Below, one piece after another: positions 11,190-64,000 of a stretch of DNA of 64,000 bases (the stretch's first letter is position 1; the number at the start of each line of letters is the position of its first letter). The DNA comes from Mobula birostris (lineage: Eukaryota). The notes below the pieces were generated by a model that did not search any database, was not told the origin of the DNA, and saw only the letters and a list, made by a program, of their open reading frames with translations. Both the position numbers and the translations under genes were made by a program. The stretch is from assembly GCF_030028105.1 (NCBI RefSeq), contig NC_092376.1:77920935-77984934 (forward strand). Direction: 5' to 3'.

Positions 11190-11742
11190 CACTACTCACT
11201 GGCAGTCAACTAGAGAAGGCCCCCTTTATTCCCATTCTAAACCTCCTGCCAGTCAGCCAATCTTCCATCCATGCTAGTAATATCATGGGCTCTTATCTTG
11301 ATTGGCAGCTTCATGTGCGGCATCTTGTCAAAGGTCTTCTGAAGATCCAAGCAAACAACATCCGCTATCTTGCCTAGATTCCAGAATCTAGTGATTCTTG
11401 AAAGATCATTACTAATGCCTTCACTACCTATTCATCTATCTCTTTCAAACCCCTAGAGGGTAGTCCATCTGTTCCAGATGTGTTATTTACTCTCAGACCT
11501 TTCAGCTTCCCATACACCTTTTCCGTAGTAACAGTGACTACACTCACTTCTGGCTCCTGACATGCTTCAATTTCTGGCAAACTGCTGGTGTCTTCCAAAG
11601 TGAAGAGTGACAAAAAATACTTACTGAATTTGTCCACATTTCTTTGTCCCCCATTACTATCTCTCCAGTGTCATTTTCCAGTGGTCTAATATCCACTTTT
11701 GCTTCTCTTTTTCTGTTTATATATCTGAAAAAAATTTGGTAT
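11190..11742 (-). mobile_element. CR1 LINE fragment, left half of the ERV integration target
   Basis: YFLSLFTLED..KLKGLRV..SGTDGL (11428-11637). Joins seamlessly to 19073-19540 once the ERV is removed (..AAAATTTG GTAT CCTCTTTTATATTA..). Confidence 0.85.
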
Positions 11743-11760
11743 TGGCGTCACGAACAGGAT
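11743..11760 (+). promoter_or_regulatory. Primer binding site, tRNA-Ser(CGA) type
   Basis: TGGCGTCACGAACAGGAT is complementary to the 3' end ATCCTGTTCGTGACG-CCA of a vertebrate tRNA-Ser(CGA) (recalled, not searched). Confidence 0.8.
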
Positions 11761-12075
11761 CGGATAGAGACCCGCGAGGAGGGGAACGGCAGACTGGGAC
11801 GCTTCCCGGTCCCTCGGGGACCCTCACGAGGCTAACAGAATTAAGGGTGCACCCAAAGAAAAAAGTGAGCGCTTTTTGCGATAATTCGGACTAAGAATTC
11901 TGCTGGTTTTGGGGGTCTTGGGGACTCAGAAATGTGAAGCAACTGCCGAATGGTCTCTCCGATCCAAAGAATCTGGCAGAATCGGGGATAAAAGGAGGCT
12001 CAGAGGATTAATCAAGAGCACGGCAGTGGGGGTAAGTACAAGTTAAGTAAGAAAATTCCACGTGGTGTTGGTAAG

Positions 12076-12240
12076 TCCCTGTGGATACCGCTTCGCACGA
12101 AACGAAGGTCTGAACAGGCAGGGAAGGAGAATTAAAAATCCTCGTGAATACCGCCTTAAGAAGTGTAAGGGTCTGCATAGGCGAGGTGTAAAACGTTCTG
12201 TGGATACCGCCCTAAGTAGGGGTCTGCACGGGCAGAACGT
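12076..12240 (+). promoter_or_regulatory. Three tandem structured RNA motifs in the ERV leader (candidate packaging or export element)
   Basis: Core TGRATACCGC-[hairpin]-GGTCTGMA-YRGG enclosed by different but complementary outer stems in three copies. Confidence 0.6.
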
Positions 12241-12396
12241 AGTAAGAGACAAAGATAGTTTGATAGAGAATTCAGACGCTGGTGAGATAAACCATAAGGC
12301 TAGGCATAGAAATAGAGTTAGAAAAATAGTACTATTAAATAGGCAAGTAGTGAGATTCTAAAAATACCATAATAGAAAAAGGAAAAAGAGAGCAAC

Positions 12397-14170
12397 ATGA
12401 CAGAGAAAGGAACAGCAGTAGAAATATTGAGCAGAAAATTCCCGGTGTGTCAAGGTAAGATCGTGGAAATTTCAGAAAAATGGGAAAAAAGAACTAAAGA
12501 ACTGGTCACGAAATGGCCAAGAGAAGGAACGTTTGATGTAAGCTTATGTGAGGAAATGGAAGCGCTAATTAAAAATCACAAACCCAAAGATAAATCTAAG
12601 AAAAGAAAAGGAAAAGCATAACAGGGAGCCGGCTTCGGCTCTATACCCAGACCTGAAAGACGTAGAAAAACCTTCTCCCTCTTACGAGAGAAAAACCCTT
12701 AAGCAGTGTCCGATGATAACAGGAAGAGTGGATCTAAATGGAGAAATTATAGTCTGGGATACCGAGGAGGAAAGAAAGAATCACGAAAAGGAGCAGGAGA
12801 AAAGGGAAATAGAAGAAGAGATCAAAGGGTTACAGGAATTAAAAGCGAAAAGAGATGAAGAGAAATCTTTGTTACATGGACACGGAGCTGAGCAGGCTAA
12901 AGCAGAAGGTAACTTGTCGGGTGGGCAAGAGTTAAGTAGCGAAAGAGAGGGTGCCGGAGAATGTAGGGAGAGGATAGGAGACAGGAGCCTTGAAGGGGAA
13001 AAAGAGAGAGTGAAAAGGCAGATATTAGAAACAGAGGGAGAGATTAGGGAATTACAGCGGAGACTGAATTTCCAACGAGAGTGTGAGGATTTCGCATGGA
13101 CCAAAGCAAATGCTAGCTCAAGGCAGAAAGAAAGAACTCCCCGAGGAGGCCAAGGGAGAAAGGAAACCCCGGAAAGAATCATGTGGCAGCCAGTGAAAAC
13201 GTGCTCAGAAACAGATGGGGAGTCAGGCAAGGAGGAGAGTCAGGAGATGTGGGAAAGGAAAGGAAGAATGATGCCGTTGTTAGTAAAAGGATTGGGACAA
13301 GTACAGTATATTCCTTGGGGATCCCAGGACCTGGAAGGGCTGAAAAACACCCTGCCCAGCCTACATTAGGGTGCAGGGAAATGGATTAGGGCCTTTGAGG
13401 AAGAAACCACGGGACGAATGTTGGCTATGGGAGATTTGAAGGCGCTGCGGATAAGGCTGATGGGAACCTCCGGACTGCGAGAGCTGATGGAAGCGGCTGG
13501 CATACAGAATGCGGACAGCACACTGATTGACGGGGCCAGATTTGACACGGTGAGGCAGAGGGTATGGGGGGCCCTCAGGGAGCTCTATCCACCCAAAATG
13601 GACCCCAAAGCCATGAAAAGGGATCCACTGGGAGACACTGAAAATCCAGTAGCCTACATAGAAAATCAGTTGAAAACGTGGAGACTGGAAATTGAACGAG
13701 GTGGAAGGCAGCCCGTTTCTGACCTGGATGTTCCGGAGTGCTGTTTTGGATGCGATGCCTTCCCAAGTTAAGTCTAAACTTGAGGAAGTGGCCGGACTGA
13801 TGTCAATGACCCCTCAGGAATTCAGGGACCACGTAGCCCATACGGTCGAAAAATATCGAAAAGATAAACGAAAGTTGACTGAGCAGCAAGAAGCAAAGAA
13901 AGCTGATACAAATGCAGCTTGGAGAACTTAAAAAGAAGGAAAAAGAAAAAGGCAAGAAGATGCAGCCGGCAATGACCGATTTAAGCACAGCCGTTGAAAT
14001 GAATGAAATGCCATTATGTGGAGGGACCGGTCCGGAAAAACCCCATGCCAATAATAAACGTCTTTGGGGGAGCATTTCCAACAAATGCCCTATCAGGGAC
14101 AGAATAAATTTAAACAGCAGCCCAGACAGGACTGGAAATCCCAAGGAAAGGGGCAGAGAGATAACAGCTA
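12397..14170 (+). pseudogene. gag: ERV gag, broken by stops and frameshifts; no NC zinc knuckle seen
   Basis: MTEKGTAVEIL..KWPREGTFD matrix-like start, E/K-rich coiled coil, capsid-like YIPWGSQDL..LPSLH*GAGKWIRAFEE; ORFs 12397, 12713, 13418, 13692, 13912. Confidence 0.8.
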
Positions 14171-16762
14171 GATAGGTTACCATCTATTCTGTGGTCACAA
14201 CATGACATGGATGTAGGGAAAATAAGAACAGCTAGTCCGGTAGAAATAAAGCTGAACAAGGGAGTAGTTCCACCCAGGAGACCACAATATCCCCTGAAAC
14301 CAGAGGCAGTAGAGGGAATAGCGCCAACGATACAGGGGCTACTGGAGGCAGGAGTACTAAGGACAGACAGCCCATGTAATACCCCACTGTTACCTGTCCT
14401 TAAAGCGGGTAAATCTAAATGGAGACTGGTACGTGACTTGCGAGCGGTGAATGAGGTAATGGAGGACTGGCCAGCGGTAGTTCCCAACCCACACACGCTC
14501 TTGACTAATGTTCCACCAGAGGCAGACTATTTTTCGGTGATTGATTTGTGTTCGGCTTTTTTCAGCGTTCCCCTGGCAGATCAGTGTCAGTACCTATTTG
14601 TATTTACATACAGAAACAACCAGTATACCTACACTAGAACGCCTCAAGGATTTAAACATTCACCACACGTATTTAATCAAGTGTTAAAGGCGGACCTAGA
14701 GGGCATATCGTTGAAAAGAACATTGATACAGTATGTGGATGATTTGTTGATTTGCTCCGAAAGTGAGGGACAGTGTGAACAGGATACCATAACCCTTTTA
14801 GAGAGACTGGCGCATGGAGGGCATAAGGTATCTAGAAAGAAGCTGTAATTTTGCAAGCAACAGGTGGAATACCTAGGTAGAGTGATATCCAAGGGAGTGA
14901 AGGCGACAGCGCCGGATCAAATTGAGGCTATAACTAAAGCTCCCAAGCCCCAGACAGTGAGACAGATGATGACGTTTCTGGGACTGACAGGATATAGTTC
15001 AGATTGGATTGGGGAATATGCTGAAATTGTAACGCCACTAAGGAAAATAATGAAGGAAGCAGGACATACAAGCTTGGGGAGTAATCTACAGTGTGGAAAC
15101 AGAGAGGTTTTAAAAAGAGCAATGGAGATCCCATACAGCACTGTCAGCAGATTTTAGATCTAATAAAAGCGCTGATGAAACCTAAAGCACTGGCTATAGT
15201 AAAATGACAGGCACATAAAAAAGGAAATGATGCAGTAACAAAGGGAAATCAAGCTGCAGATGAAGCAGCCAGGAAAGCGTCTGGGTGTACATCCGCTGTT
15301 ATTGCACCCCAGGTAAGTCTAGAGCCGGAACCTATGGTAGAGGACCTAATTGAAATACAGGGAAAGGCAACTTTGGCAGAACAAACACTGTGGAGACGAA
15401 GGGGGCGCCAAGCAAATCCCAGAAGGCCTATGGACCATGGAAGATGGCCTACTGGTAGCTCCCACCCCTTTACTGACTATCCTGATCTCAGAAGCACATG
15501 GGATGGATCATTGTGCAAGGGGGGAAGTAATAAGGAAAATAAAAAAGGATGGATTTTGGTCGCCTTATTTACAGGCTTCAGTAGACCATGTGTTGTCACA
15601 GTGTGAGGTATGTGTGTAGAATAATAATCGGAAAGGAATTACAACCCCAATAGGTCATATACCCGTACCTGAAGGGCCATTTAAACACCTAGTGATTGAC
15701 TATGTAGACATGATAAAAACAGTAAGAGGGAAAAGATACATGTTGGTGGTAATCGACAGATTCAGCAGATGGGTAGAGGCAGTACCCTCGAAAGATCAAG
15801 GGGCAGGAACAGTGGTGAAATTCCTGACAAACGAAGTGATCCCAAGGTTTGGGATACCGACAGAAATTAGCTGAGACAATGGTTCAGCTTTCATCCAAAA
15901 AGTGGTCAAGTTAGTTCTGCGAGCACTGAGAATAAAGCAGAGATTCGGATGTGTGTATCACCCTCAGTCGCAGGGTATGGTGGAAAGAATTAACGGGACC
16001 TTAAAAGCCAAACTAAACAAAATCTGTGCAGATACTAAACTCAACTGGGTCGATGCACTACCATTAGCATTAATGAGTTACCGCACGCAGACTAATCGGA
16101 TGACGTGTCTAACACCGCATGAAATGCTAACCAGAAGGCCCATGCCAGTGCCCCAGTGGAGAGGACCATATAAAGGGCCTAGTTTGGAACAACTGGAAAT
16201 GGAATTAAAACAATGCATGCGGCAATTAACTATGATACATAAGTCTATTTATGTACAGGAAAAACAGAAAGAGCCAGAGATTGATGAAGGGGAAGGACCA
16301 ATCAAGCCAGGCGATCAGGTCTACGTGCGAGCGTTTCAAAGAAAGTGGAACGAACCCAGAAGGGAAGGGCCCTTTACAGTAACCAAAGCTTCACCCACCA
16401 CAGTTCAAGTGGAAGGACGCTCCACCTGGTATCATCTCAATCACTGCATTAGAGCAGTCTCACAGGTACAGTCAGGTGGGCCACCCGAGGTAAGTGATGA
16501 AGAGGAACAAACAGTAGGGGACAGGCAAGAGCAACAAGAAACTGATACTGAACCGCAGGAGCTTGACCAAGTAATAAGGGAAATTTTTGGTCCTGAGGAC
16601 AGGCCAGAAGACCCTAAGGATGGGGTTATGGATGGTAGTACTCTTTCAGATAATGGGGATGACTTGGGGGCGACCAGTCTTGCCCCTCGGGGTGATACAC
16701 TCAGATACTCTTGTGCAGACTTGGAGACCATTAATTTGGCAGATGTGGCATGGGACTGTTAG
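14171..16762 (+). pseudogene. pol: ERV pol (RT, partial RNase H, integrase); protease and RT connection region deleted
   Basis: SPCNTPLLPV, WRLVRDLRAVN, IDLCSAFFSVP, PQGFKHSP, QYVDDLL; RNase H tail (GHKKGND..GNQAADEAA); IN H-H-C-C, IDYVDM, DNGSAF, YHPQSQGMVERINGTLK and GPY/F-like WNEPRREGPF. Confidence 0.92.
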
Positions 16763-18254
16763 GATCCCACCAAACCTGAGAGAAAGGAGTAAGAGGAGCA
16801 CAATGGGTTACCTCCGTACCATGGTACCAGAATATATGGTACCAATGGGCAAATTATACAGCAGGGATGATGAAGAGACAGAATTGTTAACTATGCTCAA
16901 GGGCAAGTCCGGTGCAATATGTAGTCCCCATGCCTTATAACTCCTCCAACTGCACGCAATGGCGAAAGGAGCGGAGGGGGCAGTGTGCGCAGCAGTGTCC
17001 AAGTATAGTGAAGACCTGCAGTATGGGAATTTGTAGCGGGATAGATCCTTGTTATCGGAAATGTATTGATAACACACCAATGTGCCCTTATTGGTGTATG
17101 TTATACCAGGCTTCCTCACAGTATGATCAAAACAAGCTTGCCTCTAACTGTAATTACAGCAGACCGTGGGCTATGAATAAAAGAAGCCAGACACCCACTT
17201 TGGGAAAGCTCAAAGTGCAGGAGCATTTGAGTTATGAATATTTCACACGGACGGGTGATCTCTTGGTTGGACATTTCAGTGGTAACTGTGCTAAGACTTG
17301 GGATGTAACCCCAGGCCAGAGATACAAGACAGGTACCCCTCCACCCGATGGTGCACTGGATGCCCAGACCATCCCGTTAGCAGATACCTAGTGGCTTTGT
17401 GGGAAGGAGGGAGGTCTGAGATCCACGCTCCCCCTCGGTTGGACAAGTACATGTACATGAGTTATGCTGATTCAAGAAGTTGTAGTATCTCCTGAAGTAC
17501 AATTTGACGCTCTGAAGCAGCAGATACTGCGACGAAGGAAGAGAAAATATGAACCTGATCCAACAATCCAAATCGACAGTATAGGACAGCCGAGAGGTAT
17601 ACCTAATGAATTTAAGGCAAGAAATGAGATTGCTGCGGGCTGGGAGGCACTTACACCTATAATAGGGGTTAGTAAAAATGTTGAATGGATAAATTATATA
17701 TATATTATAATCAACAGAGATTCATCAACTACACTGATGATGCACTAGAGGCCTTGGGGCAGCAGCTAGATGCAACCAGTAGAGTGGCGTGGCAGAATAG
17801 GCAGGTACTAGACTGGCTATTGGCAGAGAAAGGAGGGGTTTGTGTAACATTTGGGGAAAAGTGCTGTACTTCTATACCGAATAACACTAGTCCGGAGGAA
17901 TCGTTTACCAGAGCAATGAATAAACTGAAAAATCTAAGAAAGGAAGTTAAACAAAATGCAGGGTTTGGACACCAGTTCTTTGACTGGTTAGATAGTAAAC
18001 TAGGAGGATGGGGAGCATGGCTGACCAAGACTGCAGTAACCATTGGTATTGTATTGCTAAGCTGTGCGGTCATTCTGTGCTGTTTTCTTCTATGCCTCAA
18101 GTCGCTTGTAGTGCGTGCTGCAATGAAACGGTTTCCGATGCTCCTGGAAATTGTTGGGTCGAGCCCTACGGAGAAAGAAGCACCGATGATGTATTCATAC
18201 AGTCTACGAGACATGCAAGACGAACAAGAGAGAGATGAGATATGTGGGGATTAG
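16620..18254 (+). pseudogene. env: ERV env (gamma-type TM, EnvR(b)/fish-ERV-like), frameshifted
   Basis: Signal-like MGLWMVVLFQIMGMTWG, furin site RRRKR, IDSIGQPRGIPNEFKARNEIAAG, WINYIYYNQQRFINYT, ISD-like QNRQVLDWLLAEKGGVC, CX6CC (CVTFGEKCC) and a TM helix. Confidence 0.9.
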
Positions 18255-18474: not shown

Positions 18475-19072
18475 TATATTGGAAAATGTAAACGCATACA
18501 TTGTATTTTCTATGTATTACAGTATTTACAATATTTACTCAACAGTATTTCAGTATTCACTCAAATGCACACATTATATTTTCTATATTTACTATGTAAC
18601 CACTGCTAGCTGAATAGAGGGTATTTATTATGTAGCCATGACTTTTGACCTAATCACTATTAATTCATGAAGAGAACTAGAATGAAATCAAGTAGGAAGA
18701 TAACAGTGGCGAGTAAGGTAATGAAATATGTGGCAGTATGTCAAAACAAGACCAATTAAGAAATAACTATGGTTAGGAATGAGGGGACACCTGGTCTAAA
18801 AAGTAAACTAGGACATAATTAAATTGGGGAGTAAAACAATAGTGGAAGGTCGAGAGCGGATGTATTGATGATATGTGATCACAGGCCGTCTGGATATGAT
18901 AATGTAGCTAAGATAGGAGATTGCTATAAAAAATGCTGTGTACAAGCCTCGATGGGCAGTCAGCTACTAGCTTTCTGATTGTCTCAGCTTTGATTTGCAA
19001 ATTAAAGTTTAAAACGTCTTGAAGGATTTTCTGCGTCTCCTTGTTGTTTGTAAGAAACGAGAAACCACGACA
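18475..19072 (+). repeat. ERV 3' LTR (about 600 bp)
   Basis: Follows the degenerate PPT AAAGGGCAGA (18464-18473). CCAAT at about 18752, TATAAA at 18925, ATTAAA at 19001, terminal CA at 19071-19072, then the TSD. The 5' boundary is approximate. Confidence 0.85.
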
Positions 19073-19540
19073 GTATCCTCTTTTATATTATTGACTAGCT
19101 TACCTTCATATTTCATCTTTGCTCTCCTTATTGCCTTTTGTGTTTCCTTTTGTTGGTTTCTAAACGCTTTGTAATCCTCTAGCTTCCTACTAATTTTGCC
19201 ACAGTATGCCCTCACTTTTGTTTTTATGCTGGCTTTGATTTCCCTTGTCAGTCATGGTTGCCTCATCTTCCCTTTAGAGTACTATTTCTTCTTTGGGATG
19301 AATCTATCAGCTTTCCAGATTGCTCCCAGAAACCCCAGCCATTGCTGCTCTGCCATCTTCCATACTAGTGTCCCCTTCCAATCAACTTTGGCCGGCTCCT
19401 CTCTCAAGCCTCTGTAATTCCCTTTACTCCACTGTAGTACTGATACATCAGATTTTAGCTTCTATGTCTCAAACTGTAGGGTGAATTCTATCATATTATG
19501 ATTCCTGCCTCCTAAGAGTTCCCTCACCTTAAGTTCCCTT
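19073..19540 (-). mobile_element. CR1 LINE fragment, right half of the ERV target
   Basis: AIRRAKMKYEGKLVNNIKEDT (19009-19215 -) continues the CR1 broken at 11742. Confidence 0.85.
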
Positions 19541-53891: not shown

Positions 53892-56800
53892 CTGCGTTAT
53901 TCCCACTGAATTACCATTCATAACTGTCGTGCATAAAGTTCTTGAAGGAAATGTGAAGAGAAAAATTACGGGTAATTAACTAGATATTAAGTAACTTTCA
54001 GATGATCTTGTTCATGCACCAGGGCATTTAGAGATAAAAATAACACATTTTTGAAGAACACTGACACACCACATCTTTCTAAAATCATCCCTTATCAGGA
54101 AGAAGATCTGAGAAGAAGTGGAAAAATCTCTCTTTTGTGATGGTGGTATTAGGAATGAAGAAATAAAGAAATTAGGAGAATTATCTGTTATGACATTCAA
54201 GACAAAAGAGGAGATTCAATTAATTATAGGCTTAAAGCAATGTATGGAAATTGAAAAAGATTGTTTCCCAGATGTGATCATGGGATCATGTGAAAAATGC
54301 CATTGTGATGTACCAAAAAAACATTTATCCCAGTTGATCAGAGCTGGGAACGAATATAAAATGACAAAACCATTGTATACACCTCTTATGGAAAGTGATG
54401 CTGTTGATCGTTTAGAGACTAACTTAAGGCAAAAACTTAGTCCAAGGTTGTGGGGATCTTCAAATTTGTTAGAAAAGTCAATGATACCTGAAGTGCCACC
54501 TGCACCTCCACCTATCAAAGGAAGAGTAGCTACAGTAGAGTCTGTTGGTTTGTTAACAAATTTCATTGGAAAAAAAGTCAGAAACCATTTGGAAAGGCAC
54601 ATCACAAAAAGAAAACTTGAACAAAACTGGGATTTACCCACAGAAATTCAGATATCTAGAGATTTCTTTTTGCCATCTGGCCCAAAATTGATGCATTCTC
54701 AACTACAGTCCAAGAATTATGCGCACTTCATTATTGTTCAAACGCAAACATTGTTCATAAGTAATGAGCAAAAGAGAATACTGGAAGGCAATTTAATGAA
54801 GAAGGTAATCAATTATAAATATGGTCTCCTTCCAAATGTTGTTCAGATGTCTTCAAGTAATTTTATTGAATCTTATCCAAAAGAAGATGCTTTTGCACCT
54901 TCAGAGATCATAAAAGGAAGAAAGATGTTTACTGGTAATTTGGATTATTACAAAAAGACAATACATCAAACTCAAACATTATCTCTACGTTCTAGTAATA
55001 ATAATGAGAAGAGCACTGAAATGGACAAAGTATTTAAAGATAAACTAGAAATGTGCTTAAGAAAACAGTGCTTAGAGATTAAGATGACTTGTTTTCCAGA
55101 AATATTAAAAGAGATGTACAAAGTCACATATCATTTGTAATCACAGAGGAGATTACTAAAATTAATTGCATCAGATAGAGGTTATAAGAAACCATATTAT
55201 GTACCTTTAATGAGCATCGATTGGTGTTTATTTTTCAGCACAAACAGATTAATCATCTCTGGGGAACTGCAGCTCCATATGATACATCTTTAGGAATACT
55301 AAGTTGTTCAAGACCACCTCGACTTCCAGCAGTCAAAGTGAGTGGAGCTCAAGTAGAGCCTGTAAGTAGAGAAATTAATACTTCTGATGAAATTTGTAGA
55401 GATTTAAACATTCATATTACACGGAAGAAAGTTCAACAGAACTGGGGCTTGCCATTGCATATTCAAAACACTGAAAATGCCTTTATTCCACCAACTTCAA
55501 AACTAGTGTTATCCAAGTTATGCCCCCAGCCTAATTTTGAGATTCTGTTTTCTCAGCCTGAACCGACATTCCGTGATGAAGAACATGAAAGAAGACTGGA
55601 GTTCTATGTAAAGAAAAAGATTGTGAATAATCGTTGTAGACTTCCTAAGGTCATTCTATCTTCGGCATGTAATTTTATGCCTCCGGCCCCATCAATGAAG
55701 GATCACTTTGAGGAGTGTGAAATAATTAAAAACAACCAAATCATAGGCAATACTTCTTTTAAGAAGACAACCAATAAAGATAAAGGTAAATCTGATATTT
55801 CCTTGATAAAACAGCATGTGGAAATTCACAAAGACACTTTGCCAGAAAAGGTGTTGAAGTCCTATGAAATCACATCAAAGAGATCATTTCCACAGCCTCT
55901 TCTAGCTAGAAATAGATTTAAAAAACCAAGACCATTGTATCTATCAGTTTTTGAAGAATATATTGTACATCGATTGGAGTTTAATTTTAAACACAAACAG
56001 ATTAATCATCTCTGGGGTGCAGCAACTCCATATGATACATCTTTAGGAATGCGAATTTGTTCAATACCACCTCGACTTCCAGCAGTCAAAGTGAGTGGAG
56101 CTCAAGTAGAGCCTGTAAGTAGAGAAATTAATTTTTATGATGAAATTTGTAGAGATTTAAACATTCATATTACACGGAAGAAAGTTCAACAAAACTGGGG
56201 CTTGCCATTGCATATTCAAAACTCTGAAAATGCATTTATTCCACCAGCTCCAAAACTAGTGTTATCCAAGTTATGCCCCCAGCCTAATTTTGAGATTCGA
56301 TCTGGTCAGTCTGAACGAATATTCCTTCGTGAAGAAGCTAAAGGAAGACTGAAGTTCTATGTAAAGAAAAAGATTGTAAATAATCGTTGTAGACTTCCTA
56401 AGGTCATTCTATCATCGTCATGTAATTTTATGCCTCCGGCCCCATCAATGAAGGATCACTTTGAGGAGTGTGAAATAATTAAAAACAACCAAATCATAGG
56501 CGATACTTCTGTTACGAAGAAAAGCAACAAAGGTAAAGGTAAAGATAAAGAAATGAATTTTTTTGATAAAATTTGTAGAGATTTAAACATTCATATTACA
56601 CGGAAGAAACTTCAACAAAACTGGGGCTTGCCATTGCATATTCAAAACTCTGAAAATGCATTTATTCCACCAGCTCCAAAACTAGTGTTATCCAAGTTAT
56701 GCCCCCAGCCTAATTTTGAGATTCCATCTGGTCAGTCTGAACGAATATTCCTTCGTGAAGAAGCTAAAGGAAGACTGAAGTTCTATGCAAAGAAAAAGAT

Positions 56801-59800
56801 TGTAAAGAATCGTTGTAGACTTCCTAAGGTCATTCTATCATCGTCATGTAATTTTATGCCTCCAGCTCCATCAATGAAGGATCACTTTGAGGAGTGTGAA
56901 ATAATTAAAAACAACCAAATCATAGGCAATACTTCTTTTAAGAAGACAACCAATAAAGATAAAGGTAAATCTGATATTTCCTTGATAAAACAGCATGTAG
57001 AAATTCACAAAGACACTTTGCCAGAAAAGGTGATGAAGTCCTATAAAATCACATCAAAGAGATCATTTCCACAGCCTATTCTAGCTAGAAATAGATTTAA
57101 AAAACCAAGACCATTGTATCTATCATTTATTGAAGAATATATTGTACATCGATTGGAGTTTAATTTTAAACACAAACAGATTAATCATCTCTGGGGTGCA
57201 GCAACTCCATATGATACATCTTTAGGAATGCGAATTTGTTCAGTACCACCTCGACTTCCAGCAGTCAAAGTGAGTGGAGCTCAAGTAGAGCCTGTAAATA
57301 GAGAAATTAATTTTTCTGATGAAATTTGTAGAGATTTAAACATTCATATTACACGGAAGAAACTTCAACAAAACTGGGGCTTGCCATTGCATATTCAAAA
57401 CTCTGAAAATGCCTTTATTCCACCAGCTCCAGAACTAGTGTTATCCAAATTATGCCCCCAGCCTAATTTTGAGATTCGATCTGGTCAGTCTGAACGAATA
57501 TTCCTTCGTGAAGAAGCTAAAGGAAGACTGAAGTTCTATGTAAAGAAAAAGATTGTAAATAATCGTTGTAGACTTCCTAAGGTCATTCTATCATCGTCAT
57601 GTAATGTTATGCCTCCGGCCCCATCAATGAAGGATCACTTTGAGGAGTGTGAAATAATTAAAAACAACCAAATCATAGGCAATACTTCTGTTACGAAGAA
57701 AAGCAACAAAGGTAAAGGTAAAGATAAAGAAATGAATTTTTCTGATAAAATTTGTAGACATTCAAACATTCATATTACACGGAAGAAACGTCAACAAAAC
57801 TGGGGCTTGCCATTGCATATTCAAAACTCTGAAAATGCCTTTATTCCACCAGCTCCAAAACTAGTGTTATCCAAGTTATGCCCCCAGTCTAATTTTGAGA
57901 TTCTGTTTTCTCAGTCTGAACCGACATTCCGTGATGAAGAACATGAAAGAAGACTGAAGTTCTATGTAAAGAAAAAGATTGTGAATAATCGTTGTAGACT
58001 TCCTAAGGTCATTCTATCTTCGGCATGTAATTTTATGCCTCTGGCCCCATCAATGAAGGATCACTTTGAGGAGTGTGAAATAATTAAAAACAACCAAATC
58101 ATAGGCAATGCTTCTTTTAAGAAGACAACCAATAAAGATAAAGGTAAATCTGATATTTCCTTGATAAAACAGCATGTAGAAATTCACAAAGACACTTTGC
58201 CGGAAAAGGTGATGAAGTCCTATGAAATCACATCAAAGAGATCATTTCCACAGCCTATTCTAGCTAGAAATAGATTTAAAAAACCAAGACCATTGTATCT
58301 ATCATTTATTGAAGAATATATTGTACATCGATTGGAGTTTAATTTTAAACACAGACAGATTAATCATCTCTGGGGTGCAGCAACTCCATATGATATATCT
58401 TTAGGAATGCGAATTTGTTCAGTACCACCTCGACTTCCAGCAGTCAAAGTGAGTGGAGCTCAAGTAGAGCCTGTAAGTAGAGAAATTAATTTTTTTGATG
58501 AAATTTGTAGAGATTTAAACATTCATATTACACGGAAGAAACTTCAACAAAACTGGGGCTTGCCATTGCATATTCAAAACTCTGAAAATGCCTTTATTCC
58601 ACCAGCTCCAGAACTAGTGTTATCCAAGTTATGCCCCCAGCCTAATTTTGAGATTCGATCTGGTCAGTCTGAACGAATATTCCTTCGTGAAGAAGCTAAA
58701 GGAAGACTGAAGTTCTATGCAAAGAAAAAGATTGTAAATAATCGTTGTAGACTTCCTAAGGTCATTCTATCATCGTCATGTAATGTTATGCCTCCGGCTC
58801 CATCAATGAAGGATCACTTTGAGGAGTGTGAAATAATTAAAAACAAACAAATCATAGGCGATACTTCTGTTACGAAGAAAAGCAACAAAGGTAAAGGTAA
58901 AGATAAAGAAATGAATTTTTCTGATAAAATTTGTAGACATTTAAACATTCATATTACACGGAAGAAACTTCAACAAAACTAGGGCTTGCCATTGCATATT
59001 CAAAACTCTGAAAATGGATTTATTTCACCAGCTCCAAAACTAGTGTTATTCAAGTTATACCCCCAGTCTAATTTTGAGATTCAGTTTTCTCAGTCTAAAC
59101 CGACATTCCGTGATGAAGAACATGAAAGAAGACTGGAGTTCTATGTAAAGAAAAAGATTGTGAATAATCGTTGTAGACTTCCTAAGGTCACTCTTATCAT
59201 CGTCATGTAATTTTATGCCTCCGGCCCCATCAATGAAGGATCACTTTGAGGAGTGTGAAATAATTAAAAACAACCAAATCATAGGCGATACTTCTTTTAA
59301 GAAGACAACCAATAAAGATAAAGGTAAATCTGATACTTCCTTGATAAAACAGCATGTAGAAATTCACAAAGACACTTTGCCAGAAAAGGTGATGAAGTCC
59401 TATGAAATCACATCAAAGAGATCATTTCCACAGCCTATTCTAGCTAGAAATAGATTTAAAAAACCAAGACCATTGTATCTATCATTTATTGAAGAATATA
59501 TTGTACATCGATTGGAGTTTAATTTTAAACACAAACAGATTAATCATCTCTGGGGTGCAGCAACTCCATATGATACATCTTTAGGAATGCGAATTTGTTC
59601 AGTACCCCCTCGACTTCCAGCAGTCAAAGTGAGTGGAGCTCAAGTAGAGCCTGTAAGTAGAGAAATTAATTTTTCTGATGAAATTTGTAGAGATTTAAAT
59701 ATTCATATTACACGGAAGAAACTTCAACAAAACTGGGGCTTGCCATTGCATATTCAGAACTCTGAAAATGCCTTTATTCCACCAGCTCCAAAACTAGTGT

Positions 59801-62800
59801 TATCCAAGTTATGCCCCCAGCCTAATTTTGAGATTCGATCTGGTCAGTCTGAACGAATATTCCTTCGTGAAGAAGCTAAAGGAAGACTGAAGTTCTATGC
59901 AAAGAAAAAGATTGTAAATAATCGTTGTAGACTTCCTAAGGTCATTCTATCATCGTCATGTAATTTTATGCTTCCGGCTCCATCAATGAAGGATCACTTT
60001 GAGGAGTGTGAAATAATTAAAAACAACCAAATCATAGGCAATACTTCTGTTACGAAGAAAAGCAACAAAGGTAAAGGTAAAGATAAAGAAATGAATTTTT
60101 CTGATAAAATTTGTAGAGATTTAAACATTCATATTACACGGAAGAAAATTTCAACAAAACTGGGGCTTGCCATTGCATATTCAAAACTCTGAAAATGCCT
60201 TTATTCCTCCAGCTCCAAAACTAGTGTTATCCAAGTTATGCCCCCAGTCTAATTTTGAGATTCAGTTTTCTCAGTCTGAACCGACATTCCGTGATGAAGA
60301 ACATGAAAGAAGACTGGAGTTCTATGTAAAGAAAAAGATTGTGAATAATCGTTGGGGACTTCCTAAGGTCATTCTATCTTCGGCATGTAATTTTATGCCT
60401 CCGGCCCCATCAATGAAGGATCACTTTGAGGAGTGTGAAATAATTAAAAACAACCAAATCATAGGCAATACTTCTTTTAGGAAGACAACCAATAAAGATA
60501 AAGGTAAATCTGATATTTTCTTGATAAAACAGCATGTAGAAATTCACCAAGACACTCTGCCAGAAAAGGTGATGAAGTCCTATGAAATCACATCAAAGAG
60601 ATCATTTCCACAGCCTCTTCTAGCTAGAAATAGATTTAAAAAACCAAGACCATTGTATCTATCATTTATTGAAGAATATATTGTACATCGATTGGAGTTT
60701 AATTTTAAACACAAACAGATTAATCATCTCTGGGGTGCAGCAACTCCATATGATGCATCTTTAGGAATGCGAATTTGTTCAGTACCACCTCGACTTCCAG
60801 CAGTCAAAGTGAGTGGAGCTCAAGTAGAGCCTGTAAGTAGAGAAATTAATTTTTCTGATGAAATTTGTAGAGATTTAAACATTCATATTACACTGAAGAA
60901 ACTTCAACAAAACTGGGGCTTGCCATTGCATATTCAAAACTCTGAAAATGCCTTTATTCCACCAGCTCCAGAACTAGTGTTATCCAAGTTATGCCCCCAG
61001 CCTAATTTTGAGATTCGATCTGGTCAGTCTGAACGAATATTCCTTCGTGAAGAAGCTAAAGGAAGACTGAAGTTCTATGCAAAGAAAAAGATTGTAAATA
61101 ATCGTTGTAGACTTCCTAAGGTCATTCTATCATCGTCATGTAATGTTATGCCTCCGGCCCCATCAATGAAGGATCACTTTGAGGAGTGTGAAATAATTAA
61201 AAACAAACAAATCATAGGCGATACTTCTGTTACGAAGAAAAGCAACAAAGGTAAAGGTAAAGATAAAGAAATGAATTTTTCTGATAAAATTTGTAGACAT
61301 TTAAACATTCATATTACACGGAAGAAACTTCAACAAAACTAGGGCTTGCCATTGCATATTCAAAACACTGAAAATGCCTTTATTCCACCAGCTCCAAAAC
61401 TAGTGTTATTCAAGTTATGCCCCCAGCCTAATTTTGAGATTCAGTTTTCTCAGTCTAAACCGACATTCCGTGATGAAGAACATGAAAGAAGACTGGAGTT
61501 CTATGTAAAGAAAAAGATTGTAAATAATCGTTGTAGACTTCCTAAGGTCACTCTTATCATCGTCATGTAATTTTATGCCTCCGGCTCCATCAATGAAGGA
61601 TCACTTTGAGGAGTGTGAAATAATTAAAAACAACCAAATCATAGGCGATACTTCTTTTAAGAAGACAACCAATAAAGATAAAGGTAAATCTGATATTTCC
61701 TTGATAAAACAGCATGTAGAAATTCACAAAGACACTTTGCCAGAAAAGGTGATGAAGTCCTATGAAATCACATCAAAGAGATCATTTCCACAGCCTATTC
61801 TAGCTAGAAATAGATTTAAAAAACCAAGACCATTGTATCTATCATTTATTGAAGAATATATTGTACATCGATTGGAGTTTAATTTTAAACACAAACAGAT
61901 TAATCATCTCTGGGGTGCAGCAACTCCATATGATACATCTTTAGGAATGCGAATTTGTTCAGTACCCCCTCGACTTCCAGCAGTCAAAGTGAGTGGAGCT
62001 CAAGTAGAGCCTGTAAGTAGAGAAATTAATATTTCTGATGAAATTTGTAGAGATTTAAACATTCATATTACACGGAAGAAACTTCAACAAAACTGGGGCT
62101 TGCCATTGCATATTCAAAACTCTGAAAATGCCTTTATTCCACCAGCTCCAAAACTAGTGTTATCCAAGTTATGCCCCCAGCCTAATTTTGAGATTCGATC
62201 TGGTCAGTCTGAACGAATATTCCTTCGTGAAGAAGCTAAAGGAAGACTGAAGTTCTATGCAAAGAAAAAGATTGTAAATAATCGTTGTAGACTTCCTAAG
62301 GTCATTCTATCATCGTCATGTAATGTTATGCCTCCGGCCCCATCAATGAAGGATCACTTTGAGGAGTGTGAAATAATTAAAAACAACCAAATCATAGGCG
62401 ATACTTCTGTTACGAAGAAAAGCAACAAAGGTAAAGGTAAAGATAAAGAAATGAATTTTTCTGATAAAATTTGTAGAGATTTAAACATTCATATTACACG
62501 GAAGAAAATTTCAACAAAACTGGGGCTTGCCATTGCATATTCAAAACTCTGAAAATGCCTTTATTCCTCCAGCTCCAAAACTAGAGTTATCCAAGTTATG
62601 CCCCCAGTCTAATTTTGAGATTTAGTTTTCTCAGTCTGAACCGACATTCCGTGATGAAGAACATGAAAGAAGACTGGAGTTCTATGTAAAGAAAAAGATT
62701 GTGAATAATCGTTGGGGACTTCCTAAGGTTATTCTATCTTCGGCATGTAATTTTATGCCTCCGGCCCCATCAATGAAGGATCACTTTGAGGAGTGTGAAA

Positions 62801-64000
62801 TAATTAAAAACAACCAAATCATAGGCAATACTTCTTTTAAGAAGACAACCAATAAAGATAAAGGTAAATCTGATATTTTCTTGATAAAACAGCATGTAGA
62901 AATTCACCAAGACACTCTGCCAGAAAAGGTGATGAAGTCCTATGAAATCACATCAAAGAGATCATTTCCACAGCCTATTCTAGCTAGAAATAGATTTAAA
63001 AAACCAAGACCATTGTATCTATCATTTATTGAAGAATATATTGTACATCGATTGGAGTTTAATTTTAAACACAAACAGATTAATCATCTCTGGGGTGCAG
63101 CAACTCCATATGATGCATCTTTAGGAATGCGAATTTGTTCAGTACCACCTCGACTTCCAGCAGTCAAAGTGAGTGGAGCTCAAGTAGAGCCTGTAAGTAG
63201 AGAAATTAATTTTTCTGATGAAATTTGTAGAGATTTAAACATTCATATTACACGGAAGAAACTTCAACAAAACTGGGGCTTGCCATTGCATATTCAAAAT
63301 TCTGAAAATGCATTTATTCCACCAGCTCCAAAACTAGTGTTATCCAAGTTATGCCCCCAGCCTAATTTTGAGATTCGATATGGTCAGTCTGAACGAATAT
63401 TCCTTCGTGAAGAAGCTAAAGGAAGACTGAAGTTCTATGTAAAGAAAAAGATTGTAAATAATCGTTGTAGACTTCCTAAGGTCATTCTATCATCGTCATG
63501 TAATTTTATGCCTCCGGCTCCATCAATGAAGGATCACTTTGAGGAGTGTGAAATAATTAAAAACAAACAAATCATAGGCGATACTTCTGTTACGAAGAAA
63601 AGCAACAAAGGTAAAGGTAAAGATGAAGAAATGAATTTTTCTGATAAAATTTGTAGACATTTAAACATTCATATTACATGGAAGAAAATTTCAACAAAAC
63701 TGGGGCTTGCCATTGCATATTCAAAACTCTGAAAATGCATTTATTCCACCAGCTCCAAAACTAGTGTTATTCAAGTTATGCCCCCAGCCGAATTTTGAGA
63801 TTCGATCTGGTCAGTCTGAACGAATATTCCTTCGTGAAGAAGCTAAAGGAAGACTGAAGTTCTATGCAAAGAAAAAGATTGTGAATAATCGTTGGGGACT
63901 TCCTAAGGTCATTCTATCGTCGGCATGTAATTTTATGCCTCCGGCTCCATCAATGAATGATCACTTTGAGGAGTGTGAAATAATTGAATACAACCAAATC
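53892..64000 (+). pseudogene. Giant repeat-coding exon, SPATA31/FAM205/CCDC168-like, disrupted; runs off the window
   Basis: ORFs 54118-55140 (340 aa), 55221-58982 (1253 aa) and later fragments. Recurrent motif LExHIxKKxxxxxWGLPxxIxxSxxxF.PPAP and LEMCLRKQCLEIKMTCFPEILKE resemble motifs I recall from SPATA31 and CCDC168. No transposon domains. Confidence 0.6.
55220..64000 (+). repeat. Tandem array, 1179/1180-bp unit (753/754 + 426 bp subunits), over 7 units, with a 2360-bp higher-order period
   Basis: The anchor AGA(G/C)ATT..AC/TATTCAT occurs at 55398, 56151, 56577, 57330, 57756, 58509, 58935, 59689, 60115, 60869, 61295, 62049, 62475, 63229 and 63655. Confidence 0.97.

Follow-up and report, generated by a model that had tools for sequence, protein, structure and literature searches.

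In Moloney murine leukaemia virus (MoMuLV), the packaging signal lies between the env donor and gag, with a core made up of the stem-loops DIS-2/SL-B, SL-C and SL-D, and the nucleocapsid protein (NC), whose single knuckle binds UCUG, binds tightly only when the three stem-loops are present together (excerpts of PMC7599994). Among NXF1-binding export elements, the CTE of MPMV is one stem-loop of 150-175 nt with two internal loops, and the gamma-CTE of MLV is marked by an AAGACA sequence held in a stem-loop (excerpts of PMC7551171). In fish, the class I retrovirus ZFERV has a 517-bp region made up of nine direct repeats, to which the excerpts assign neither a structure nor a function (excerpts of PMC3382231).

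Here we describe an array of three stem-loop units in the leader of an endogenous retrovirus (ERV) of Mobula birostris, which lies within a 64,000-nucleotide stretch of genomic DNA (the window) and represents a real, selected and apparently undescribed RNA module. Like the MoMuLV core encapsidation signal, as excerpted in PMC7599994, the array sits between a (predicted) donor and gag, and brings together three tandem stem-loops, here predicted, with UCUG words that a single-knuckle NC may bind. Unlike it, the units of the ray ERV are paralogous repeats with a fixed internal loop, variable apical loops and a number that ranges from 2 to 7; GACG loops are missing, as is a palindrome within the element, and UCUG sits inside the internal loop rather than in a linker. 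By this comparison, the array would work like a gammaretroviral Psi as regards where it lies and how it is assembled from modules, without belonging to that group. With the MPMV CTE and the MLV gamma-CTE, so far as the excerpts of PMC7551171 describe them, the array shares conserved internal loops between stems; it differs in the absence of AAGACA, in being built from three short hairpins as opposed to one long stem, and in its location in the leader. Judged by sequence or by shape, it is not a CTE. The likeness to ZFERV, compared by description only, consists in tandem repeats (some 57 nt on average in ZFERV) in a fish class I retrovirus (excerpts of PMC3382231).

The host provirus and its leader

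The provirus that carries the array is, on its sequence features, a class I (gamma/epsilon-like) endogenous retrovirus, with an LTR, a primer site, the gag-pol-env order, a reverse transcriptase (RT), an MLV-type integrase end and a gamma-type TM. It lies on the forward strand, and all genes of the window copy are broken: gag (12397-14160, start ATG at 12397) contains stops and frameshifts, and a deletion of about 1167 nt has cost it the protease region and the 3' end where the zinc knuckle would lie; pol survives as remnants of an RVT_1 reverse transcriptase and an MLVIN_C integrase (14165-16762), and env as remnants with a gamma-type transmembrane part (TLV_coat; 16760-18254, the 5' boundary being approximate). 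The copy has a 3' LTR (18477-19072) and no 5' LTR. A target-site duplication, GTAT (11739-11742), lies directly 5' of the primer binding site and recurs as an identical 4 nt after the 3' LTR (19073-19076); the primer binding site itself (11743-11760) has as its complement the 3' end of a tRNA-Ser(CGA) gene of the same genome.

A gag query gives at least 149 matches in the genome. Paired LTRs are present in 15 of 20 fetched copies and are 90.3-99.5% identical, so that integration must have continued until recently; full family copies carry 4-nt target duplications, perfect in 13 of 15. The family has two subfamilies, told apart by the primer site; compared with the window, identity is about 77% for leaders and 80-84% for RT. 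The primer sites read TGGCGTAGTCGGCAGGAT versus TGGCGTCACGAACAGGAT (L034 and L105 are examples of subfamily B loci), which is probably a switch between two tRNA-Ser types, the window type being matched to a tRNA gene. A single CCHC knuckle is found in the family Gag at 3 of 30 gag loci, most of the others ending, or being deleted, before that point. A deletion of 1166-1167 nt that takes out knuckle and protease is common to 6 of 16 measurable copies, the window included; the six lie at different sites, in different flanks and with their own target duplications, which indicates mobilisation in trans, and all keep three units, such that the array travelled intact.

The closest named RT, at 90% identity, belongs to Mobula hypostoma, followed by teleost and shark proteins at about 55-70%, and in an RT tree the family is grouped, with weak support, with teleost and shark ERV proteins. 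The nearest teleost and shark relatives, with RT 62-71% identical, come from Brienomyrus, Esox, Oryzias melastigma, Sinocyclocheilus, Triplophysa and Mustelus. Teleost ERV proteins thus reach 62-71% RT identity, but the remaining ERV families in this genome only 34-48%. Such values hint that the retrovirus may have jumped between bony and cartilaginous hosts, although support in the tree is weak at that depth.

Some features of integration merit a brief description. The LTR (L176-L195; window 18477) starts with TAT, not the usual TG, and ends with ACA. Two independent proviruses without a 5' LTR, that of the window (11739-11760, 19061-19076) and L197 (G000:C1 near 34955900), each have a perfect 4-nt duplication (GTAT and TATG, respectively) directly abutting the primer site and the end of the 3' LTR, which suggests that incomplete cDNA was integrated with the TG of the primer site used as its end. 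The LTR end is missing in 3 of 91 leaders with a primer site; L196 and L198 resemble the copies lacking a 5' LTR, with a duplication match of 3/4. Elsewhere in the window, 55367-63985 is a tandem array with a period of 1179-1180 nt (sub-periods of 753 + 426 nt), in about seven copies that are 97-99% identical.

The leader extends for about 650 nt from the primer site. A preliminary description of the locus had placed donor-like sites at 12032 and 12071 upstream of the array, and the array upstream of gag; this arrangement is confirmed, with the addition of an earlier third donor-like site, at 11865, that had been overlooked. A 10-nt palindrome, GGGTGCACCC (11845-11854), is a candidate dimer-initiation site, exact in 70 of 91 leaders and with one mismatch in a further 18. 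After it comes predicted donor-like site 1 (11862-11870, GT at 11865), which reads AAG/GTAAG in 29 of 39 subfamily B leaders, and then predicted site 2 (12029-12037, GT at 12032). An 8-nt palindrome, CCACGTGG (12058-12065), present in 72 of 91 leaders, lies directly before the array; both palindromes are GC-rich and upstream of it. Predicted site 3 (12068-12076, GT at 12071) is kept as TTG/GTAAG in 72 of 91 leaders, its +6 base being the first base of the outer stem of unit I, and all three donor-like sites are kept in most leaders. By analogy with other retroviral leaders, we take the succession of palindrome, donor and array to be that of dimer site, major donor and packaging signal.

Retroviral leaders with IRES activity are known, and the length of this leader, together with its two upstream ATGs (11932 and 11950), would suit a translation element, whether for internal ribosome entry or for shunting, that carries ribosomes past it to gag. 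The array, however, ends some 155 nt before the gag ATG, no part of the leader is less conserved than the sequence in between (49 of 156 sites diverged), and the number of units varies from 2 to 7; we regard a role in translation as very improbable.

Anatomy and predicted fold of the units

Units I, II and III occupy 12076-12124, 12140-12186 and 12193-12240, respectively, on the forward strand, and the positions and letters reported for them in the preliminary description all proved correct. Folded singly, each of the three gives the shape that had been claimed, an outer stem, a conserved internal loop and an apical stem-loop, and the prediction as a whole is of three separate hairpins of 47-49 nt with unpaired, purine-rich linkers between them. 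The pairing proposed for unit III holds overall, except for its outermost two pairs (AC/GT), which need a letter present in 2 of 30 loci; family-wide, the stem of this unit is 12195-12238. A fuzzy pattern scan of the 64-kb window returned the three units and three matches without flanking stems.

The anatomy was followed in 93 distinct leaders with at least two units each, which provide 308 units (leaders with fewer were dropped, and one overlap is possibly counted twice). Arrays contain 2-7 units, and exactly three in 68 of the 93 leaders; type I comes first and type III last in 91, and larger arrays have nearly always arisen through type II being duplicated, with units gained in steps of 61-62 nt. 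In a set picked on gag only, 26 of 30 loci have at least three units and one has two, the remaining three being truncated such that array and primer site are lost together. A coding role, for which a 104-codon open frame (12047-12361) was considered, is rejected: the frame has no ATG and, since units are added in steps of 61-62 nt, the array cannot be a reading frame.

Across units, the core strands GYGRAUACCGC and GGKCUGMAYRGRC are near-fixed. In all three window units, the 3' strand of the internal loop contains UCUG; the word is kept in 268 of 308 units, with CUG in 299, and GCUG takes its place in 28, drawn from both subfamilies. As a short word, UCUG has three further copies elsewhere in the leader. 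No palindrome of 8 nt or longer was found in the array, and no GACG in the three window units.

Folding stability of the single units is weak (z = -1.48, -0.71 and -2.00 for I, II and III, with 20, 37 and 11 of 200 shuffles, respectively, folding as well as the unit). Weak energies, like the repeated duplication of unit II in 61-62 nt steps, are what might be seen if the array were a by-product of tandem duplication through RT slippage, its stems kept complementary by template switching between the arms and its core having no selected function. Against this stands the observation, made in the preliminary description and upheld here, that the stems vary yet continue to pair: all seven variable inner stem pairs of the window units change on both sides, all being U-A or C-G, an outcome with a probability of (1/3)^7 = 4.6e-4 under random assignment of the 3' letters to the units, and these differences surround a near-fixed loop.

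In an alignment of 13 units, double changes are seen in 8 of 11 pairs, and 95% of cells pair as against 40-59% with partners slid, a control that favours the fold in that the structure was derived from the very 13 sequences tested. The covariation score for these units is above that of 500/500 shuffles, though kinship inflates such scores, and the number of pairs with a double change was matched by 175 of 500. In effect, the signal is carried by three unit types, a point that also sits well with duplication without selection. The larger sample speaks the other way: pair 10-47 of the alignment is U.G in 233 units, U-A in 38, C-G in 34 and C.A in none, and thus pairs in 305 of 308. In subfamily B, 34 of the 85 units of types I and II have it as U-A, as against 0 of 39 type III units, 33 of which have C on the 5' side.

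Other folds were considered for the same strands. A three-way junction (with a GUCU-GMAY-RGGC hairpin) is 1.9-4.7 kcal/mol worse, and a four-way junction 0.2-1.6 kcal/mol worse, than the fold with the longer outer stem that was first proposed; both junctions need pair 38-47, which is broken in 29 of 308 units, whereas pair 10-47 holds in all but three. The behaviour of pair 10-47 supports the longer outer stem over the junction folds. Adding an ACC/GGU helix would gain about 1.5 kcal/mol, at the price of an A-U pair that 33 of 308 units cannot form. Within the internal loop, G11 lies opposite G46 in 301 of 308 units and positions 12 and 45 are facing purines, which suggests non-canonical pairs. 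Sarcin-ricin, kink-turn, hammerhead, twister and tRNA-like readings were set aside, the fixed bases of each being missing.

When the whole leader is folded, most settings give unit I together with the unit III outer stem; the stems of unit II reach a pair probability of at most 0.06, and the apical stem of unit III one of 0.11-0.25. As unit II is not formed in the whole-leader ensemble, protein or magnesium would have to stabilise the fold.

Conservation and spread

The pattern GTGRATACCGC-N(8,24)-GGTCTGNAYRGGC matches the 4-Gb genome exactly at 241 places, as against none for its reversed control, which excludes a chance origin of the motif. Divergence between the subfamilies was compared in three-unit leaders only, 36 from subfamily A and 31 from subfamily B. 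Diverged sites amount to 3/72 in the core, in keeping with the conservation of the internal loop that had been claimed for it, and to 1/50 in the stems, 7/18 in the loops, 9/25 in the linkers, 28/289 in the 5' leader and 49/156 in the 3' leader. Core and stems together (4/122) set against the rest of the leader (93/513; Fisher p = 9e-6) point to purifying selection on core and stems. The stretch 11894-12075 is conserved about as well as the array, which is therefore not the sole selected part of the leader.

For an array without selected function, the contrast of core and stems (4/122) with loops and linkers (16/43) is hard to accommodate, as are the retention of types I and III in 91 of 93 arrays and the distribution of pair 10-47 given above. 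We consider an unselected by-product of duplication very improbable, and already largely refuted. Compensation, conservation and position together support a conserved, cis-acting structured RNA module in the ERV leader.

Among the loci tested, the motif is found only in its own ERV family. It is missing from 31 of 40 loci selected by RT, which belong to other ERV families (RT 34-48% identical; leader examined in 10), and was not found in 11 outside loci, two of which (L096 and L171) have a full leader. Matches in contigs of other organisms concentrate on the array: in one (organism E) the match spans 12052-12245 only and gives way to unlike sequence, and in another (organism F) it covers the array and 11961-12033. 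A pattern search of viral contigs gave three matches, which we attribute to chance, since the more complete fuzzy pattern fails at each of these positions.

Packaging, export and relatives of the array

The preliminary description had offered a packaging or dimerisation signal, or a CTE-like export element, as possible identities. Dimerisation fits poorly: the units have no palindrome, their apical loops are the most variable part (7/18 sites), and the conserved 10-nt palindrome of the leader is found outside the array. A CTE-like element fails the sequence test, AAGACA being missing from the leader, with a new kind of export element as the form in which that idea could survive. A Psi-like role fits best, and we lean, with limited confidence, towards the array being a Psi-like core packaging signal bound by Gag. 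Here, each unit would present an identical internal loop to the zinc knuckle of Gag, and the tandem units would allow several Gag molecules to bind the unspliced genome only. Such a mechanism presupposes that the fold forms in cells, that Gag would be the ligand, and that env splicing would remove the array, leaving it in unspliced RNA alone; a greater number of units would then confer greater avidity, and dimerisation would begin at the separate palindromes. Consistent with packaging are the location downstream of the donor-like sites and ahead of gag, stems that both show double changes around a near-fixed core, the 2-7 units in fixed order, the single CCHC knuckle of the family Gag, the UCUG kept in most units, the purifying selection on core and stems, the analogous arrays of L171 and L096, and the retention of the array by defective copies that reached several genomic sites as a subfamily. 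The last of these is weak evidence, an export or stability element being equally likely to be kept. Weighing against packaging are the marginal stability of single units, the failure of unit II to form in the folded leader, the 28 units with GCUG, the shortness of the UCUG word, the lack of GACG loops, and a neighbouring stretch about as conserved as the array.

A large conserved internal loop between free stems also resembles the sites of host proteins. NXF1, an SR protein or another adaptor might bind the internal loops and purine-rich linkers, either to bring about nuclear exit of unspliced RNA or to damp the donors. In addition to the fixed loop, the free stems and apical loops, and the linkers themselves, this would account for the overlap of donor-like site 3, widely kept as TTG/GTAAG, with the base at which unit I begins; the window ORFs include no recognisable accessory Rev-like gene, and MLV has five export elements along its RNA (excerpts of PMC7551171). 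The leader lacks the AAGACA mark of the gamma-CTE, however, and the array is not one long stem of 150-175 nt with two loops as in the MPMV CTE. Moreover, quite different cores are found at this place in distant relatives, as would be expected of a viral partner that evolves fast more than of a conserved protein of the host. In our judgement, control of export or splicing through a host protein is rather unlikely, if well short of negligible. Should the ligand be a host factor, the array would establish a new class of export element, located in the leader.

That the motif had not been described before is true of Rfam and the literature searched, with a qualification, in that tandem repeats of similar length in fish retroviruses have been published for ZFERV (excerpts of PMC3382231). 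Rfam 15 gave six matches over 11600-12700, with E-values of 1.1-7.8 and all far below gathering scores. In the open-access literature searched, we found no description of the motif, nor any fish retrovirus for which a packaging or export signal has been mapped; the excerpts of PMC8672886 mention neither 'leader' nor 'stem-loop', and those of PMC4977317 do not mention 'leader'.

Among the relatives, L171 is a complete 10.3-kb fish retrovirus record, which we presume to be salmon swim bladder sarcoma virus. Like the ray ERV, it has three repeats (61-63 nt, at 505-689) downstream of a donor-like site (323) and upstream of gag (1047), all predicted to fold into a stem, an internal loop and a stem; unlike those of the ray ERV, they give no match to the model of the ray array, are 87-89% identical to the middle copy and show no double changes. 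A class I ERV with 56% RT identity (L096:948-1140) has six leader hairpins in the frame ATGAGCC-variable-GGAC[GT]TT, and both L096 and L171 thus carry analogous arrays of other hairpins at the equivalent place in the leader. The ZFERV repeat region, too, is located in the 5' leader. In a further ERV family of the same genome (L112, L114, L116 and L119) one to three CCYAGCTGAAAGG hairpins lie after the primer site and no more than 230 nt from it.

Across the lineages examined, four different modules occupy the equivalent leader place. We put forward, as a tentative proposal that we rate as doubtful, that in fish class I retroviruses the genome-selection signal may be an array that can expand by repeating a single module, each lineage having its own and lineages exchanging the module as a whole; the module of this family would be an undescribed fold, with a large purine-rich internal loop and free stems, recognised either by the knuckle of its own Gag or by an export factor of the host, and the number of units would act as an avidity dial. 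If the leader repeats of ZFERV, L171 and L096 share a function, then repeats so far merely catalogued become one design principle, and the co-evolution of RNA module and NC becomes comparable across lineages. In any case, a compact unit of about 50 nt, with its stems fixed by natural compensation and its core marked by conservation, is a direct target for probing and binding tests.

Some minor observations concern the same relatives. The start of the primer site of L096 is equal to that of the window, and its leader has a palindrome, GGTGCACC, at 253. The hairpins of L112, L114, L116 and L119 have the loop AGCTGAAA (AGCT being palindromic) on variable C-rich/G-rich stems. Finally, L172, L173 and L174 are fish-type ERV contigs inside bacterial genome bins labelled Photobacterium and Brevinema, where they are likely to represent host contamination.
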